A stretch of DNA of 64,000 nucleotides from a virus. A program made the translations under genes and the position numbers. This document shows positions 1,803 through 62,427 of this stretch, one piece after another (the first letter of the stretch is position 1; every line of letters starts with the position of its first letter). Under the pieces are notes generated by a model. It had not been told where the DNA came from. It searched no databases and worked only from the letters and a program-made list of their open reading frames with translations. Where the stretch lies: positions 1 to 64,000 of the IMG/VR virus record IMGVR_UViG_3300042934_000822. The stretch is one strand, 5' to 3'.

Positions 1803-1904
1803 GGGGAATTCCTGTATCTGGCTGATTGCCTGATCATCATACACTAACGCGCGTTCGCGCCAACGTGTTTTAGCGCGAACGCGCGTTAGCGCCTTTAAGT
1901 TATG

Positions 1905-3352: not shown

Positions 3353-3644
3353 AGCGTTGAACCTCGAACTTCTGTCGGTATTTGATGAGCTCCATAACGG
3401 TGAGGTAGAGATCGCTGCCGGCGTTGGCACATGCCGTCCGGTAGGCGTCCGTACCCCGCTCGCCGCTTGTGCTGTGCCCCATGGTCATGACCCCGGTTTC
3501 ACGGTGATGCGCGATCGCCACGAAGTTGTAGGCCTGCTCAGGAGCGTCTTGACCGCCCACTGTGCAGCTGACGGTGAAAGCCACATCCCCGTAAGGGGTA
3601 GCGTCGACGGTATTGCTCAGCGAAATGTCTCGGTTGGCCAGCAT
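3342..3644 (-). CDS. Hypothetical protein
   Basis: ATG at 3644 coupled to the upstream stop. Confidence 0.6.
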   Translation of the reverse strand: MLANRDISLSNTVDATPYGDVAFTVSCTVGGQDAPEQAYNFVAIAHHRETGVMTMGHSTSGERGTDAYRTACANAGSDLYLTVMELIKYRQKFEVQRYAN

Positions 3645-4000
3645 CAGTTCAGCTCCGGGCGCACTGGCCGACCCATGTAGGGCTCCAAGCGTTTGGCGAT
3701 CTCGTTGGCCAAGCTCGCCAGCCCTTCGCGCATTCCCGCGCTGGCCAGGGCAATGGTCTGATTGCCCTCCAGCGACTCCACCAGCAGCTCCACGTTGCGC
3801 GCGCTGGCCTGAATGGCCTGGCCAGCCCTCAGCGCTTCGGTCAGCCCCTGTGCAGCGTCCGCCCATGCCTCGGCGTCAAACCCCACGGGCGGGTTGTACT
3901 CATAGGTGTCCGCCAACAGCTCGGCATTCCCCAGGAACCTCATGCGTTCGGCGAGGAAAACCCCGGCCATGCCGCTGAAAATGATCGGTAGCTTTTGCAT
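3644..4000 (-). CDS. Hypothetical protein
   Basis: GAGG RBS 7 nt before ATG 4000; first gene after a promoter. Confidence 0.65.
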   Translation of the reverse strand: MQKLPIIFSGMAGVFLAERMRFLGNAELLADTYEYNPPVGFDAEAWADAAQGLTEALRAGQAIQASARNVELLVESLEGNQTIALASAGMREGLASLANEIAKRLEPYMGRPVRPELN

Positions 4001-4191
4001 GTTCATACCTCTGGCTGATTTGCCCGGGAATGATTGCACAAACGCGCGTTCGCGCCAAACTGTTTACGCGCTTTCGCGCTAACGCGCGTTTGATGCCAAT
4101 TCGAAGGCTCATTGCAACGAGGACGTCAGCACCAGGTAACGGCTACCGAACTGGCAGGCCTTGGCGCTACGCGTAGACGTGCGCTCATCGG

Positions 4192-6324: not shown

Positions 6325-6795
6325 TTACCCCTTCTTTTTCGGCACCAAATGCGCCACAGCCCGCAAATATAGGGCCTTGGACAGTCCCCTTTCGCCCTTG
6401 GGCGCCCCTGAAATAATGTCCATCACGCTCGCCTTCTTGAACCTGGGCGCAAGGTCGTAAAAGCGAAGTTTCGTCGCCAGACGAGTGCCGCGCGCGATCG
6501 AGCAGCGCAGCTCACGTTCGGGGTAATCCTGATCGAACCACCCGAATGGAAGGCCTAGAATGTCCTCGAGCCGACGGCTGAGGCGCTCGGGTATTCCGCC
6601 GCGTGCAGTCACCGCGACGCTCATCTGGTTGGCGAATTTGTTCTGATCCTGCTCGGAATAGGCGCTTAGAGCCCTGATGCGCACGCCGTCATAGCGCAGA
6701 TCAACGTACAGGATGAACCTGAGACGGCGCGCAGCCTGGGCTGCGGCGACGGCCTCATCTACCGTCTGGCACCCCTCGAAAACTTCAATGTTCAT
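6325..6795 (-). CDS. Putative repressor / HTH-like regulator
   Basis: LSRRLEDILGLPFGWFD resembles the end of phage CI/Cro-type HTH domains; flanked by CGCGGATA repeats. Confidence 0.5.
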   Translation of the reverse strand: MNIEVFEGCQTVDEAVAAAQAARRLRFILYVDLRYDGVRIRALSAYSEQDQNKFANQMSVAVTARGGIPERLSRRLEDILGLPFGWFDQDYPERELRCSIARGTRLATKLRFYDLAPRFKKASVMDIISGAPKGERGLSKALYLRAVAHLVPKKKG

Positions 6796-6947
6796 ATCGC
6801 ACTTATCGCTGGCTGTCTTGGTGCAGGGATAGTACCAGCACAAATTAACAAACCGCTGTTTTTTCTGCAAAAAGCCCTTTATCGTATGCACCGTATGTAC
6901 GCGGATACATTTTCCGATGTACGCGGATAGCGAGAGAGGGGGCTTTG

Positions 6948-7661: not shown

Positions 7662-8627
7662 ATGTTCTTCAAAAACCTGCTGACCTACCGGCTGACACAG
7701 CGCGTGGCCCTGGACGTCGACACGCTCGAGCATGCGCTGGCCAGCAAAAAGACGCGCGAGCCGGCCAACCAGGAGCTGAGCACTTACGGCTTCACAGCGC
7801 CCTACGGCAAACATGAGGATGCACCCTTGGTGCATGCCAGTCACGGCTACGTGTTGATCGCCGCACGTAAGGTCGAAAGGATCCTGCCAAGCGGATCGGT
7901 AGCCCAAGAGGTTCGCAAGCGCATTGAGACGATCGAGGCCGAGCAGATGCGCAAGGTCTACAAGGCCGAGCGGGACCAGATCAAGGATGAAGTGATCCAG
8001 GCCTTCCTGCCCCGGGCTTTCCTGCGTGAGAAAGTGACCTATGCGGCCATTGACGCCGAGCGCAACCTGATCCTGGTCAACACCGCCAGCGCCAAGACTG
8101 CCGAGGATTTGCTCTCAACACTGCGAGAGGTGCTCGGCTCGCTGCCGGTGCGACCAGTGGCTGTCAAAATTGCGCCTACGGCCACCTTCACCGACTGGCT
8201 CAAGACCCAGTCACCTGCAGAACACTTCTACGTGGGTGACAACTGCGAACTGCACGATGTGGCCGAGGGTGGCGGCGTGGTGCGTCTCAAGGGTCAGGAC
8301 TTGATGGGTGAGGAAGTCCAGCTGCACCTGAGCACCGGCAAGGTGTGCGCACGTCTGGCGCTGACCTACAAGGACGAGCTCTCCTTTGTGCTGAACGATC
8401 GGCTGACCCTGTCCCGGTTGAAGTTCGAGGCCCTGCTCACAGAGAAAGCGGCCCATGACGGCGGTGACGATGATGCTGGGCACTTCGACGCCAGCTTTGT
8501 GCTGATGATGGCAACGCTGCGTGCCTTCTTGCCCTATCTGTTCGAGGTCCTGGGCGGCGAGGACGTACCGCAAGGTGTTGGGCTGCCCGAAATGATCACC
8601 ACCTTGGGCGGCCGGCCGGCGGCCTGA
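7662..8627 (+). CDS. rdgC: Recombination-associated protein RdgC
   Basis: [11 protein letters not shown]...ERILPS...[16 protein letters not shown]...FDASFVLM. Confidence 0.95.
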
Positions 8628-8652
8628 CAGGAAGCGGCTCAAACGCGAGGCG

Positions 8653-8715
8653 AAAAAAAGCCGCGGCTCCCAAGGGATCGCGGCCTTTCTTCACAAATAT
8701 CAGCCAGATAAATGT
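8653..8715 (-). ncRNA. Candidate antisense small RNA (~63 nt)
   Basis: TTGCTA-N16-TATAAT promoter (8749-8722), GC hairpin plus U7 terminator (8685-8653), no ORF; contains UAUCUGGCUGAUA complementary to several 5' UTRs. Confidence 0.6.
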
Positions 8716-8759
8716 GCCCGCATTATAAGCCGCTGGACCTGATTAGCAAGGAACACCCG

Positions 8760-9044
8760 ATGAAAATCATCTTCGACGGCCACCAGGTTCTGCACCAGGG
8801 CCATCGCGGCCGGCATCAGCCGAGCTTACCCAGGAAGCGTGTTACCTGGGTGGGCACTGCGATGGTCCGGGACAGCACTGGCCGCGCAGTAGAAGCCAGT
8901 TGGACAACACCTGCAGGACAGCGCATGAACTATCTCGAGGCGAAGGCGGCAGTGTTCGCGATTGTTGGCGAGCTACAGCGACAATTCATCGCGGACTATC
9001 AAGAAGCTCCAGGGACGGCAACTTTCATATTGGTGGGCCGATAA
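8760..9044 (+). CDS. Hypothetical protein
   Basis: AAGGA RBS, ATG 8760. Confidence 0.6.
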   Translation: MKIIFDGHQVLHQGHRGRHQPSLPRKRVTWVGTAMVRDSTGRAVEASWTTPAGQRMNYLEAKAAVFAIVGELQRQFIADYQEAPGTATFILVGR

Positions 9045-29189: not shown

Positions 29190-29300
29190 TGCCCGATTCC
29201 TGGATGATTGGTAAACCAGGATTATCAAGCGCGTTGGAGGGTACGCGCGTTGGCACCTTTGCGCGTTCGCGCCAAAAAAACTTGTGATTGGTGACAGGCA

Positions 29301-29585
29301 TCAGCGAGTGGCGATCCAGCCGACCGGCTCGCTGTCCTGGTCTACCAGGGCTCGGAACTCGCTCATGGCTAGGGCGGGATTGTTGTAGCAGTAGCGCCGG
29401 GCGTAGCCGTACGGGTCAACGTCGGTGACGATTGCGACGGTGAAAATGAGCGGAATCATGGCCACATAGGTACCGTCTTCGAGCTGGCGCCAGCACAGGT
29501 ACCGGTTGGCTGGGTTGTTCAGCTGAGCTTCGACCTCTGGGCGGGGCTGGGCGTTTATCATCCAGACATTTTGAGGGGCTTTCAT
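29301..29585 (-). CDS. Hypothetical phage protein
   Basis: MKAPQ...YGYARRYCY...EPVGW; start placed after the promoter at ~29620. Confidence 0.7.
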   Translation of the reverse strand: MKAPQNVWMINAQPRPEVEAQLNNPANRYLCWRQLEDGTYVAMIPLIFTVAIVTDVDPYGYARRYCYNNPALAMSEFRALVDQDSEPVGWIATR

Positions 29586-29656
29586 GACTGATTTCTCTGG
29601 CTGATATCGTATGCGGACGATAGTACTGGCCAGAAATAGGAATTTAAACCTGTTTT

Positions 29657-29728
29657 CACGCGTTCGCGCGTTCGCGCTTTGGCGCTTTGGCGCTTTGGCG
29701 CTTTGGCGCTTTGGCGCTTTGGCGCCTA
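29657..29728. repeat. Nine-unit 8-bp tandem array (five exact GGCGCTTT); candidate partition centromere
   Basis: cacgcgtt cgcgcgtt cgcgcttt (ggcgcttt)x5 ggcgccta. Confidence 0.75.
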
Positions 29729-33457: not shown

Positions 33458-34117
33458 TTATTCCGTGCCCTCGAGCAGCGACAGTACGTTGTTCATGATG
33501 AGGGTGATTTCATCGACCGCAGCCTGGTCGCGGGGCTTGTACTCGAAGACTGACTGGCCCACGCCCGCGCTCTCCGGATACGCGACGCGCTGGACCACGA
33601 TGCCTTCGATGACTGGCAGCTCGAAGACCTCGATTTCGCTCTGGATGTTCTTCGCTCGGTTGGTGCCCTGAATCACACGGGTCAGGACGAATGCAGCCTT
33701 GAGGGAGCGCGACACGTCCGCCAGCATTTCCTGGCGGTCCTTGATCATGTTGACCAGGTCTTCGGATGCCCAGACGTCGAGCTTCGAAGGCTGAACAGGG
33801 ATCAACACCAGGTCAGCAGCCTTGACGGCGGCCTCGGCCAGCTTGTTGGCCTTCGAAGCGCCATCGATGACCACATAGTCGTTCTTGATTCGGGAGACTT
33901 CACGCGAGAGCAGTTCCGGGCGATCGATTGCATAGATGCGCACCGTCTCCTGATCATCCTCTCGGGCTGCCGCCCAGTCGCGGGCAGTCCCTTGAGGATC
34001 GGAGTCAACCAGCACCACGTCCATACCCTGACGGCTCATGGCGTCGACCAGGTTGTACGACAGGGTGGTTTTGCCGGCGCCGCCCTTGGGCTGCAGGACC
34101 GCAATGACCTTTGGCAT
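33458..34117 (-). CDS. parA: ParA-family partition ATPase (short, type Ib/ParF-like)
   Basis: KGGAGKTT deviant Walker A, VDSDPQG, VVIDG, LIPVQPS. Confidence 0.93.
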   Translation of the reverse strand: MPKVIAVLQPKGGAGKTTLSYNLVDAMSRQGMDVVLVDSDPQGTARDWAAAREDDQETVRIYAIDRPELLSREVSRIKNDYVVIDGASKANKLAEAAVKAADLVLIPVQPSKLDVWASEDLVNMIKDRQEMLADVSRSLKAAFVLTRVIQGTNRAKNIQSEIEVFELPVIEGIVVQRVAYPESAGVGQSVFEYKPRDQAAVDEITLIMNNVLSLLEGTE

Positions 34118-34166
34118 GAAGAAACCTCGATTATCTGGCTGAATGAGGCCGGCACTATAACTGCAA

Positions 34167-34230
34167 AGCGCGTTCGTGCGAACCCTCCAACGCACAAAAG
34201 CGCGTTCGCGCCAAAGCGCCTTAGCGCCTT
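34167..34230. repeat. Eight phased 8-bp units over the parA promoter
   Basis: agcgcgtt cgtgcgaa ccctccaa cgcacaaa agcgcgtt cgcgccaa agcgcctt agcgcctt; -10 TATAGT at 34154-34159. Confidence 0.65.
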
Positions 34231-34288: not shown

Positions 34289-34540
34289 TTACATCTGAGC
34301 GACCCTTTCCTCCTCGACGGGCTCACGCAAGGTGGGCTCTACCAGGTCGTTTCTGGCCAGCCTCCCGTTACCTGGCCAGGTGCCTTCTTGGATCATCTGC
34401 TTGTTGAACTTGGCGTCAGCTACCTGTTGCTCGAAATCAGCAGATCCGGCGAGCCCGAAGCAAACGGCAAGTGCGACACCGGTGAGGAAAGTAGACACCG
34501 GGCCCATGAACTGCTGACGCTTATGATTGTGTGTACGCAT
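34289..34540 (-). CDS. Small hypothetical membrane/exported protein
   Basis: AAGGA RBS, one hydrophobic segment, own promoter and terminator. Confidence 0.55.
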   Translation of the reverse strand: MRTHNHKRQQFMGPVSTFLTGVALAVCFGLAGSADFEQQVADAKFNKQMIQEGTWPGNGRLARNDLVEPTLREPVEEERVAQM

Positions 34541-34657
34541 TGGTGAAGTCCTTCATATCTGGCTGATAGGTGAAGCGAGAAGGACATTATCATTATGTTA
34601 ATTTTCTAGCAATGAAGCATTATCAAATTACTAATTTTTTGCAGACTGGAGAAGGTC

Positions 34658-61853: not shown

Positions 61854-62336
61854 TCACGCCGGTGCAGCCGCGCTTGGCGTGCCGGGATGGGTGAACGCGC
61901 CAGCAAGCCCGTTGCTTTCCACCTGCAGCAGCAACGCGGCATCAAGCCCGAGCTTCTCGCAGACAGCGATAGCAGCGCGCTCGGCAGACTGGGAATTGCT
62001 GGCGGTCACGCCCCGGCGCATAGCACGGGCCAGGTAGCCGCCAGTGATGTACCGCACGTTGATCTGCACAGCGACAGCGCTTGTCGCGCCAGCGTCCTCC
62101 TGGGCAGCCACTGGGGTGCAGTGTTCCAGGTCAACGAAACCGCGCTTGCCTTCCAGGAACACGATGGCGGTATGGCCACCGGTTACCTGTGCTTCGCTCG
62201 AGGTGCGGCCACGGAAAGTTTCGCCATCGCCGAGGATCTCCTCGAAGCTAACGAGCGTGCCCGGCGGGTTGGCAGCGTTCCACTGGTCACATTGGATTTG
62301 AAGCTCGGCGGGGGTTTTGCGTTTCGGTAAGGGCAT
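61854..62336 (-). CDS. Hypothetical phage protein
   Basis: TTGAAA-N17-TAGAAT promoter upstream; WNAANPPGT motif. Confidence 0.65.
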   Translation of the reverse strand: MPLPKRKTPAELQIQCDQWNAANPPGTLVSFEEILGDGETFRGRTSSEAQVTGGHTAIVFLEGKRGFVDLEHCTPVAAQEDAGATSAVAVQINVRYITGGYLARAMRRGVTASNSQSAERAAIAVCEKLGLDAALLLQVESNGLAGAFTHPGTPSAAAPA

Positions 62337-62427
62337 TTTGGTGTATCCGGCTGATATTGAGCCTAGATTCTAAGCGGCCTCGGCTACATTTTCAACTCTT
62401 AATGTAATCTGAGATTACATATAGATG

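Follow-up and report, generated by a model that had tools for sequence, protein, structure and literature searches.

A candidate antisense small RNA gene and its complementary leader boxes in a putative P1-like phage-plasmid of Pseudomonas

The c4 RNAs of bacteriophages P1 and P7 and the CI RNA of P4 carry a seed that pairs with boxes located by the ribosome-binding site (RBS), thereby silencing lytic or anti-repressor functions in the prophage. The c4 seed and its target boxes co-vary between the heteroimmune phages P1 and P7. Both C4 and CI are cut from the transcript of the operon that they control, and each acts on one operon. A short motif at scattered promoters can also coordinate replication, partition and accessory operons, as is the case for the dispersed, asymmetric 17-base-pair (bp) operators of P1 C1 and for the sites of KorA/KorB in IncP plasmids. 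Stand-alone small RNAs (sRNAs) of temperate phages, namely VpdS of the Vibrio plasmid-like phage VP882 and PreS of lambda, act on several messenger RNAs (mRNAs) through short base pairing, with VpdS targeting host as well as phage mRNAs (PMC12197685). The ~70-nucleotide (nt) RNAs sar of P22 and OOP of lambda, each transcribed from a promoter of its own up to an intrinsic terminator, pair with phage mRNA near the RBS or the 3' end (PMC12197685). Here we describe a locus at positions 8653-8749, on the minus strand, of a 64-kilobase (kb) stretch of DNA (the window) that constitutes the first 64 kb of the 80.9-kb IMG/VR virus record IMGVR_UViG_3300042934_000822 (element G000; 62% GC). Judged from its sequence, the locus is probably the gene of a trans-acting antisense sRNA that would pair beside the RBSs of a dispersed regulon, including the partition gene parA.

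We treat G000 as a P1-like phage-plasmid of Pseudomonas. It encodes ParA (PHROG/Pfam assignment) and is ~90% coding, with gene starts taken from a simple gene caller and from comparison of orthologues. Among named relatives, pKF715C, a plasmid of Pseudomonas putida KF715, comes closest, with ~70% identity across ssb-rdgC and the neighboring genes; its annotation lists a nuclease of the Ref family and a protein of the NinX family along with similar phage genes.

The locus lies between rdgC and a 94-amino-acid gene at 8760-9044 (the 8760 gene), and its sequence and coordinates are as originally described: a minus-strand cassette with the promoter TTGCTA-N16-TATAAT, no open reading frame (ORF), a GC hairpin and a U7 tract. 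The -35 element (8744-8749) overlaps the Shine-Dalgarno region of the 8760 gene on the opposite strand and is separated by a 16-nt spacer from the -10 element (8722-8727), giving 10 of 12 matches to the sigma-70 consensus. This is the sole promoter-like site on either strand within 8400-9000. A consensus scan of all 80.9 kb returned nine sites with at least 9 of 12 matches and two with at least 10 of 12, and the cassette promoter is one of those two. The predicted transcript of ~63 nt extends on the minus strand from A8715, seven nt past the -10 element, to the end of the U7 tract at 8653, and no plausible ORF was found within it. Positions 8716-8653 (64 nt) are predicted to form two hairpins with a minimum free energy of -29.4 kcal/mol (z = -5.5), and none of 200 shuffled sequences folds as well. 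The 5' hairpin (25 nt, 8692-8716) has a 10-pair stem with a 2x2 internal loop and presents UGGCU in its short terminal loop (8706-8702), as had been expected of the RNA. It carries the anti-box (seed) UAUCUGGCUGAUA, has a free energy of -7.0 kcal/mol on its own and would cost 7.0 kcal/mol to open. The remainder (8653-8691) consists of an A/G-rich linker, a GC-rich hairpin (8684-8660) and U7 (8659-8653). The same terminator hairpin occurs on the plus strand directly after rdgC, but its T tract is broken there. The features of an independent transcription unit are thus present by sequence, i.e., a promoter, no ORF, and an intrinsic terminator that would give the predicted transcript a U tail. 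A scan against Rfam, proposed as a check for a known family, gave no match, C4 included: no family reached its gathering score in the window, and with E values up to 10 the region 8600-8800 yielded only terminator-driven matches of 8-20 bits to unrelated families and none to C4.

The sense sequence complementary to the seed, which we call the box, recurs in G000. With at most one mismatch allowed, ATCAGCCAGAT has seven copies in the window against 1.06 expected, and none of 100 shuffles reaches seven. The exact 9-nt core TCAGCCAGA has seven copies in the whole genome, and all seven are outside genes; box matches with one mismatch are mostly coding. The cassette copy (8699-8709) is, as had been noticed, also in sense orientation to the 8760 gene on the plus strand, in whose cis-overlapped leader it lies. 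Six other copies (at 1817, 4010, 29596, 34134, 34558 and 62346, the last with one mismatch) are in sense orientation 8-17 nt before a start codon and are preceded, at a distance of 10-22 nt, by a -10-like hexamer, which bears out the description of sense boxes placed between promoter and start codon. They belong to six other operons that are 4.7-54 kb from the cassette, and the boxes are spread over more than 60 kb.

All six target boxes are on the minus strand. The gene at 816-1802 has ATCAGCCAGATA (1815-1826) 13-14 nt upstream of its ATG and 10 nt past the -10 element TATGAT, with a predicted seed duplex of -20.2 kcal/mol; orthologous leaders in pKF715C, G001, G002, G003 and G009 also contain the box. 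In the leader of the gene at 3644-3994/4000 (family A, 118 amino acids), ATCAGCCAGAG (4009-4019; -21.4 kcal/mol) overlaps the RBS, with GAGG lying within the 3' end of the box. The same sequence is found at 29595-29605, 9-10 nt upstream of the ATG of the gene at 29301-29585, where the predicted duplex of -23.8 kcal/mol is the best of the 87 initiation regions. Upstream of parA (33458-34117), TTCAGCCAGAT (34133-34143; -19.7 kcal/mol) is located 15-16 nt before the ATG, and the parA leaders of pKF715C and G009 retain CAGCCAGA despite unrelated flanks. The gene at 34289-34540 (family D, ~80 amino acids) has ATCAGCCAGAT (34557-34567; -22.3 kcal/mol) 16-17 nt before its ATG. The gene at 61854-62336 is preceded by the promoter TTGAAA-N17-TAGAAT and by ATCAGCCGGAT (62345-62355; -22.7 kcal/mol), 8-9 nt from the ATG. 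The mismatch in this last box, 62346 A>G, is the sole internal variant seen and would keep a G-U pair with the sRNA, in agreement with the wobble that had been proposed. These six targets are the six best seed duplexes among the 87 initiation regions (-19.7 to -23.8 kcal/mol), and shuffled seeds produced six such duplexes in less than 1% of trials. Complementarity between seed and box extends over 10-17 nt.

Four of the nine promoter-like sites with at least 9 of 12 matches adjoin box copies; three are upstream of the target boxes at 1817, 34134 and 62346, and the fourth is the sRNA promoter itself.

The original prediction counted at least seven phage 5' untranslated regions as complementary to the RNA. 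Six solid trans targets and the cis-overlapped 8760 leader stand, whereas two weaker copies are unsupported. One of these (29200-29208) has 2-3 mismatches and is indistinguishable from background. The other, CAGCCAG at 6809-6815, is a 7-mer with more than 40 occurrences in coding DNA; it likewise does not stand out from background, and pKF715C has CAGCCAC at the orthologous site. The leader of the repressor-like gene at 6325-6870, to which this latter copy belongs, has AAGACAGCCAGCGATAAG after a TACTAT -10 element (6797-6830), and pKF715C has AAGACAGCCACCGATAAG at the same place; the match is in the right position, but is too short and too variable to be called a target. The ORF itself had no Pfam or PHROG match. 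An exact copy outside the window (69175-69183) was rejected as a target or decoy. It lies in a 14-pair hairpin (69150-69215) directly after the stop codon of the gene at 69205-69972, with the sense box UCAGCCAGA in the loop, and is followed by a sequence resembling AGCCGCGGCTCCCA, which is also found in the sRNA terminator. Four relatives conserve the hairpin but not the sequence of its loop, and this box is probably a lineage-specific or chance match. In the mRNA of the gene at 29301-29585 (window positions 29550-29607), the leader box can pair with GUCUGGAUGAUA, located ~25-36 nt into the coding region, to form an 11-pair stem, and the predicted unpaired probability of the box is 0.13; this internal pairing could be a competitor of the sRNA or a chance match.

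Cassettes were collected by pattern and protein-anchored searches, giving a set of 14: G000-G003, pKF715C, G009, G010, G011, a plasmid of P. atacamensis SM1 (W02), and G004-G008. Several of the relatives are incomplete contigs (49-89% by CheckV), and therefore target counts in the relatives are minimums. The position between rdgC and a small gene is common to G000 and the 13 related Pseudomonas phage-plasmids. RdgC of the cassette-bearing relatives is 59-70% identical to RdgC of the window, and the small protein encoded downstream, a member of the 8760 gene family (MKIIFDG...) in all relatives, is 31-54% identical. In pKF715C, the intergenic piece after rdgC that holds the cassette is 85% identical, compared to ~70% for the neighboring genes. 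A TTGNNN element is located 16-17 nt from the -10 element in 13 of the 14 cassettes, although the sequence of the spacer has diverged; the -10 variants are TATAAT, TAGAAT, GATAAT, AATAAT and TATCAT, the exception being G005, which has TATCAT and no clear -35 element. All 14 cassettes have an uninterrupted U6-8 on the minus strand, while the plus-strand T tract is short and broken.

RNAalifold predicts two hairpins for the aligned cassettes. Three pairs of the 5' stem change from A-U to U-A in five of the 14 sequences and one terminator pair changes from G-C to A-U in four, whereas the loop and the two closing pairs of the 5' hairpin are invariant, as is UCUGGC(U)GA in its loop and upper stem. 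An invariant, loop-exposed seed with several predicted targets close to translation starts is, like the independent transcription unit, a trait of trans-encoded base-pairing sRNAs of the enterobacterial/pseudomonad type, which are often bound by Hfq. Read on the minus strand, 96 of 96 terminator stem cells are paired (six of them as G-U), compared to 90 of 96 on the plus strand, where A-C mismatches occur. Strand-specific wobbles in the 5' hairpin number three on the minus strand to one on the plus strand, and G-U cells overall number nine to one. A covariance model of the RNA (R1) scores 77 bits at the G000 cassette and 48-81 bits across all cassettes. Its matches in the cassette-less G012, G013 and G014 (P. 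fluorescens DR133 plasmid) are at most 22 bits, and the DR133 plasmid has a single box copy, apparently within coding sequence. The joint absence of RNA and boxes is weak evidence, however, because the family A protein search also returned none of these three elements. Two members of the set have a second hairpin-plus-terminator upstream of rdgC (G011, L101:184-251; G010, L061:353-420), which scores 33 and 23 bits, respectively, with R1. This second element has the loop CACUGCC and a T-run of ~nine and may be a paralogous small RNA with another seed.

The strandedness of these features bears on a reading in which an RNA-binding protein, either a translational repressor or an activator, recognizes the sense box in the mRNA. 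The hairpin at 8692-8716 would then be a high-affinity version of that site on the plus strand, in the 8760 leader, and the minus-strand promoter and U tract would be by-products of a bidirectional rdgC terminator and of the RBS of the 8760 gene. It accommodates boxes at RNA-level positions, including the intercistronic boxes described below, and a cassette that always precedes the same gene family, and the exchange of A-U for U-A pairs is equally valid on the plus strand, where the loop reads AGCCA. We nevertheless hold it to be improbable. It assigns no known plus-strand role to a -10 element that keeps its distance from TTGNNN in 13 of 14 cassettes and belongs to a promoter that ranks among the two best in the genome, the U tract is unbroken on the minus strand only, and the G-U pairs favor that strand. 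In addition, the target boxes are not in comparable hairpins, and no plus-strand promoter was found between the terminator and the 8760 gene. An antisense RNA is favored over such a protein because the sole distinctive content of the dedicated promoter-to-terminator unit is the exact complement of the box.

Comparison of boxes among the relatives, which had been proposed as a test of the RNA, revealed two classes of seed and box that switch together. In group 1 (G000-G003, pKF715C, G009, G010 and W02), the cassettes have the core CAGCCAGA, and 3-7 leaders per genome have the same core. The boxes of pKF715C, one forward and seven reverse, follow the pattern of G000, and W02 has CTCAGCCAGAGA in its cassette and in three of three leaders, whose match to the W02 sRNA itself is 12-15 nt long. 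The group-2 cassettes (G004-G008) have AATCGCCAGAGA and 4-6 leaders per genome have (T/A/C)CGCCAGAGA, while TCAGCCAGA occurs in these genomes only inside long open frames. Four leader families switch class with the cassette: A, B (145-160 amino acids, cysteine-rich), D, and the gene behind W02-L029/G004-L212. Family A leaders match the box class of their own genome in 10 genomes when found through their boxes, and at 12 of 12 loci when found through the protein (11 already seen and one on a new contig). Family D leaders have TCAGCCAGA in group 1 and CGCCAGAGA in group 2. The W02-L029 and G004-L212 leaders share the same operator palindrome, -10 element and RBS, and their boxes differ exactly as the two sRNAs differ. 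Since at least four dispersed leader families and the cassette have switched in concert, the cassette and leader copies appear to be read by one common partner. A scan of metagenomes with family A returned the same elements again and no third seed class.

This concerted change makes it very improbable that a real sRNA would be confined to action in cis, whether on the rdgC-to-8760 transcript or through transcriptional interference, with the dispersed boxes being unrelated to it. The predicted sRNA is indeed fully complementary to the plus-strand intergenic transcript from rdgC to the 8760 gene, and its promoter faces incoming transcription from rdgC. An unrelated function of the boxes would not predict, however, that box class tracks the cassette over two groups and four orthologous leader families.

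A protein could also read the box as double-stranded DNA. In this case, one asymmetric DNA-binding regulator would recognize all copies, including that at 8699, and a minus-strand transcript would be irrelevant or absent. The six target boxes of G000 do abut promoters, each with a -10-like hexamer 10-22 nt upstream, so that RNA polymerase could be blocked by a protein bound there; a changed protein specificity would fit the concerted change of boxes between groups equally well; and the element is P1-like, P1 being a phage with dispersed asymmetric operators. Several observations make this explanation unlikely, albeit the least unlikely of the three considered here. In the relatives, at least ten boxes follow ORFs of 79-358 codons, at 10-25 nt (for one box, 42 nt) from the stop codon, and lack a sigma-70-like promoter within reach, and the presence of intercistronic boxes lacking a recognizable promoter favors a role at the RNA level. 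All leader boxes in G000 and its relatives are in sense orientation, and their position is tied to the start codon at a distance of 8-30 nt. A separate palindromic operator family already covers the -35 regions of several target promoters (window 1846-1893, 4041-4091, 29657-29728 and 34167-34230) and recurs in the relatives at L028, L029 and L212. The group-1 form is GCGCGAACGCGCG, W02 and group 2 have TAATGAC-N3-TTAGCG, and this operator type assorts independently of box class, as W02 combines operators and a -10 element of group-2 type with a group-1 seed. Furthermore, a DNA site would leave unexplained why a conserved promoter, an unbroken U tract and a covarying hairpin surround only one copy, and no candidate protein was identified.

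A palindromic operator of the form TATC-N5-GATA, which had been offered as an alternative to the RNA, was rejected. Only three copies occur, so that palindromic flanks are not a common feature of the boxes; the flanks vary among the targets and covary, as a hairpin, in the cassette only. The part conserved among the copies is the asymmetric core alone. Taken with the sense orientation, the intercistronic boxes and the separate operator at the -35 regions, this asymmetry argues for an mRNA site over a promoter operator, and the comparative tests favor the originally proposed single sRNA with a dispersed regulon, including parA, over the operator alternative. The combination found in W02 suggests that two regulatory specificities (operator and seed) undergo modular exchange.

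Several points weigh against the antisense interpretation and temper our confidence in it. A single protein reading all of the copies would likewise make boxes and cassette covary, and the cassette copy, being in sense orientation to the downstream gene, could be counted as one more leader copy. The A-U to U-A covariation of the 5' hairpin is strand-neutral. The asymmetry of G-U pairs does favor the minus strand, but it amounts to ~5 independent events and, given this small sample, is only a hint. Part of the conservation of the -35 element could be explained by its overlap with the RBS of the 8760 gene. Finally, the predicted accessibility of the boxes is unremarkable, with a mean unpaired probability of 0.13-0.64 for the box core. 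With regard to the direction of regulation, repression is preferred here, but pairing at the extreme 5' end could equally stabilize or activate the mRNAs, because the box is often at the very 5' end of the transcript.

Under the antisense interpretation, the following mechanism may be proposed. The strong sigma-70 promoter would direct synthesis of a ~63-nt non-coding RNA ending at a Rho-independent terminator that is shared back-to-back with rdgC. The first 25 nt of this RNA would form a weak hairpin presenting the seed UCUGGCUGA, with UGGCU in the loop. The loop and upper stem would nucleate pairing with a box, and the duplex could then extend to 10-17 bp in the leaders of the genes at 816-1802, 3644-4000, 29301-29585, 34289-34540 and 61854-62336 and of parA. 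Because the box adjoins or overlaps the Shine-Dalgarno sequence, 8-17 nt from the start codon, the likeliest action is a block of 30S binding by a duplex ending at that distance, possibly accompanied by mRNA decay. Translation of early, accessory and partition genes would be lowered during plasmid carriage, with the sRNA forming a second, post-transcriptional layer over the repressor/operator arrays at the same promoters. The sRNA is probably present in the plasmid state, because its promoter carries none of the operator motifs. Since the targets are the first genes of early and accessory operons together with parA, the RNA would keep leaky expression low and place partition under the same signal. 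Production of the RNA, its pairing with the boxes, the sign of regulation and any role of Hfq are all inferred from sequence.

The searches that were made define the scope of these comparisons. A single-protein search of viral contigs with RdgC, two over-specific DNA patterns and a pattern scan of genome contigs found no relatives, the last giving one chance match in a Competibacter metagenome-assembled genome. The small downstream protein varied too much for its alignment to serve as a search query. In G001, two stop codons interrupt the reading frame of the rdgC homologue (L018:2968-3930), and an additional ~500 bp lie between this homologue and the sRNA cassette, which stays beside the small downstream gene.

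We further propose, tentatively and as something more doubtful than the sRNA itself, that the sRNA and its leader boxes constitute an RNA address code common to a family of P1-like Pseudomonas phage-plasmids. One constitutive 63-nt RNA would gate, at the level of translation, every box-tagged operon, be it of early or accessory genes or of parA, and the seed class (CAGCCAGA or CGCCAGAGA) would provide a second specificity of immunity or incompatibility, independent of the repressor. If this is true, an element already in the cell would silence incoming relatives of its own seed class, but not those of the other class, and W02, with group-2 operators and a group-1 seed, would indicate that the two specificities can be reshuffled. 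Provided that the sRNA acts as proposed, the locus would represent a compact and evolutionarily tractable case of a mobile element that wires a dispersed regulon, including partition, through one sRNA and a portable tag of 9-12 nt. The two seed classes with their matching targets would amount to natural "compensatory mutation" data and would furnish a ready orthogonal pair of sRNA/leader modules for Pseudomonas, and the idea of RNA immunity known from P1 c4 would be extended from one operon to a genome-wide layer. Such a system may also bear on mutual exclusion or tolerance among related phage-plasmids. The hypothesis is directly testable, since P. putida KF715, the natural host of pKF715C, is culturable and its genome has been sequenced (PMC5313618).

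The locus described here resembles the c4 RNAs of P1 and P7 and the CI RNA of P4 in being a candidate RNA of a phage-plasmid with RBS-adjacent boxes and two co-varying classes of seed and box. Unlike C4 and CI, the sRNA has its own predicted promoter and terminator, and its boxes mark at least six operons, that of parA included, along more than 60 kb; also unlike C4, it does not match an Rfam model. With P22 sar and lambda OOP it shares the organization of a small antisense RNA that extends from promoter to terminator, as predicted from sequence here. Those RNAs are complementary only to the locus that they overlap, whereas the cis-overlapped leader is one of seven sites in G000. The recurrence of one short motif across a phage-plasmid or plasmid is reminiscent of the P1 C1 and KorA/KorB regulons. 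However, the sites in those regulons are protein-binding DNA sites overlapping promoters, while the motif described here keeps to the vicinity of start codons and not to promoters, is always in sense orientation, also occurs between cistrons and is accompanied by a complementary RNA gene. No homology to VpdS or PreS was detected. These two RNAs were found by experiment and have heterogeneous targets, whereas the targets found here share a leader box that hardly varies and is set at a fixed distance from the start codon. Our literature searches retrieved no description of one nearly invariant leader tag across at least six operons including partition. Such a leader tag over at least six operons, existing in two natural specificity classes, is what is new in this element and its relatives.

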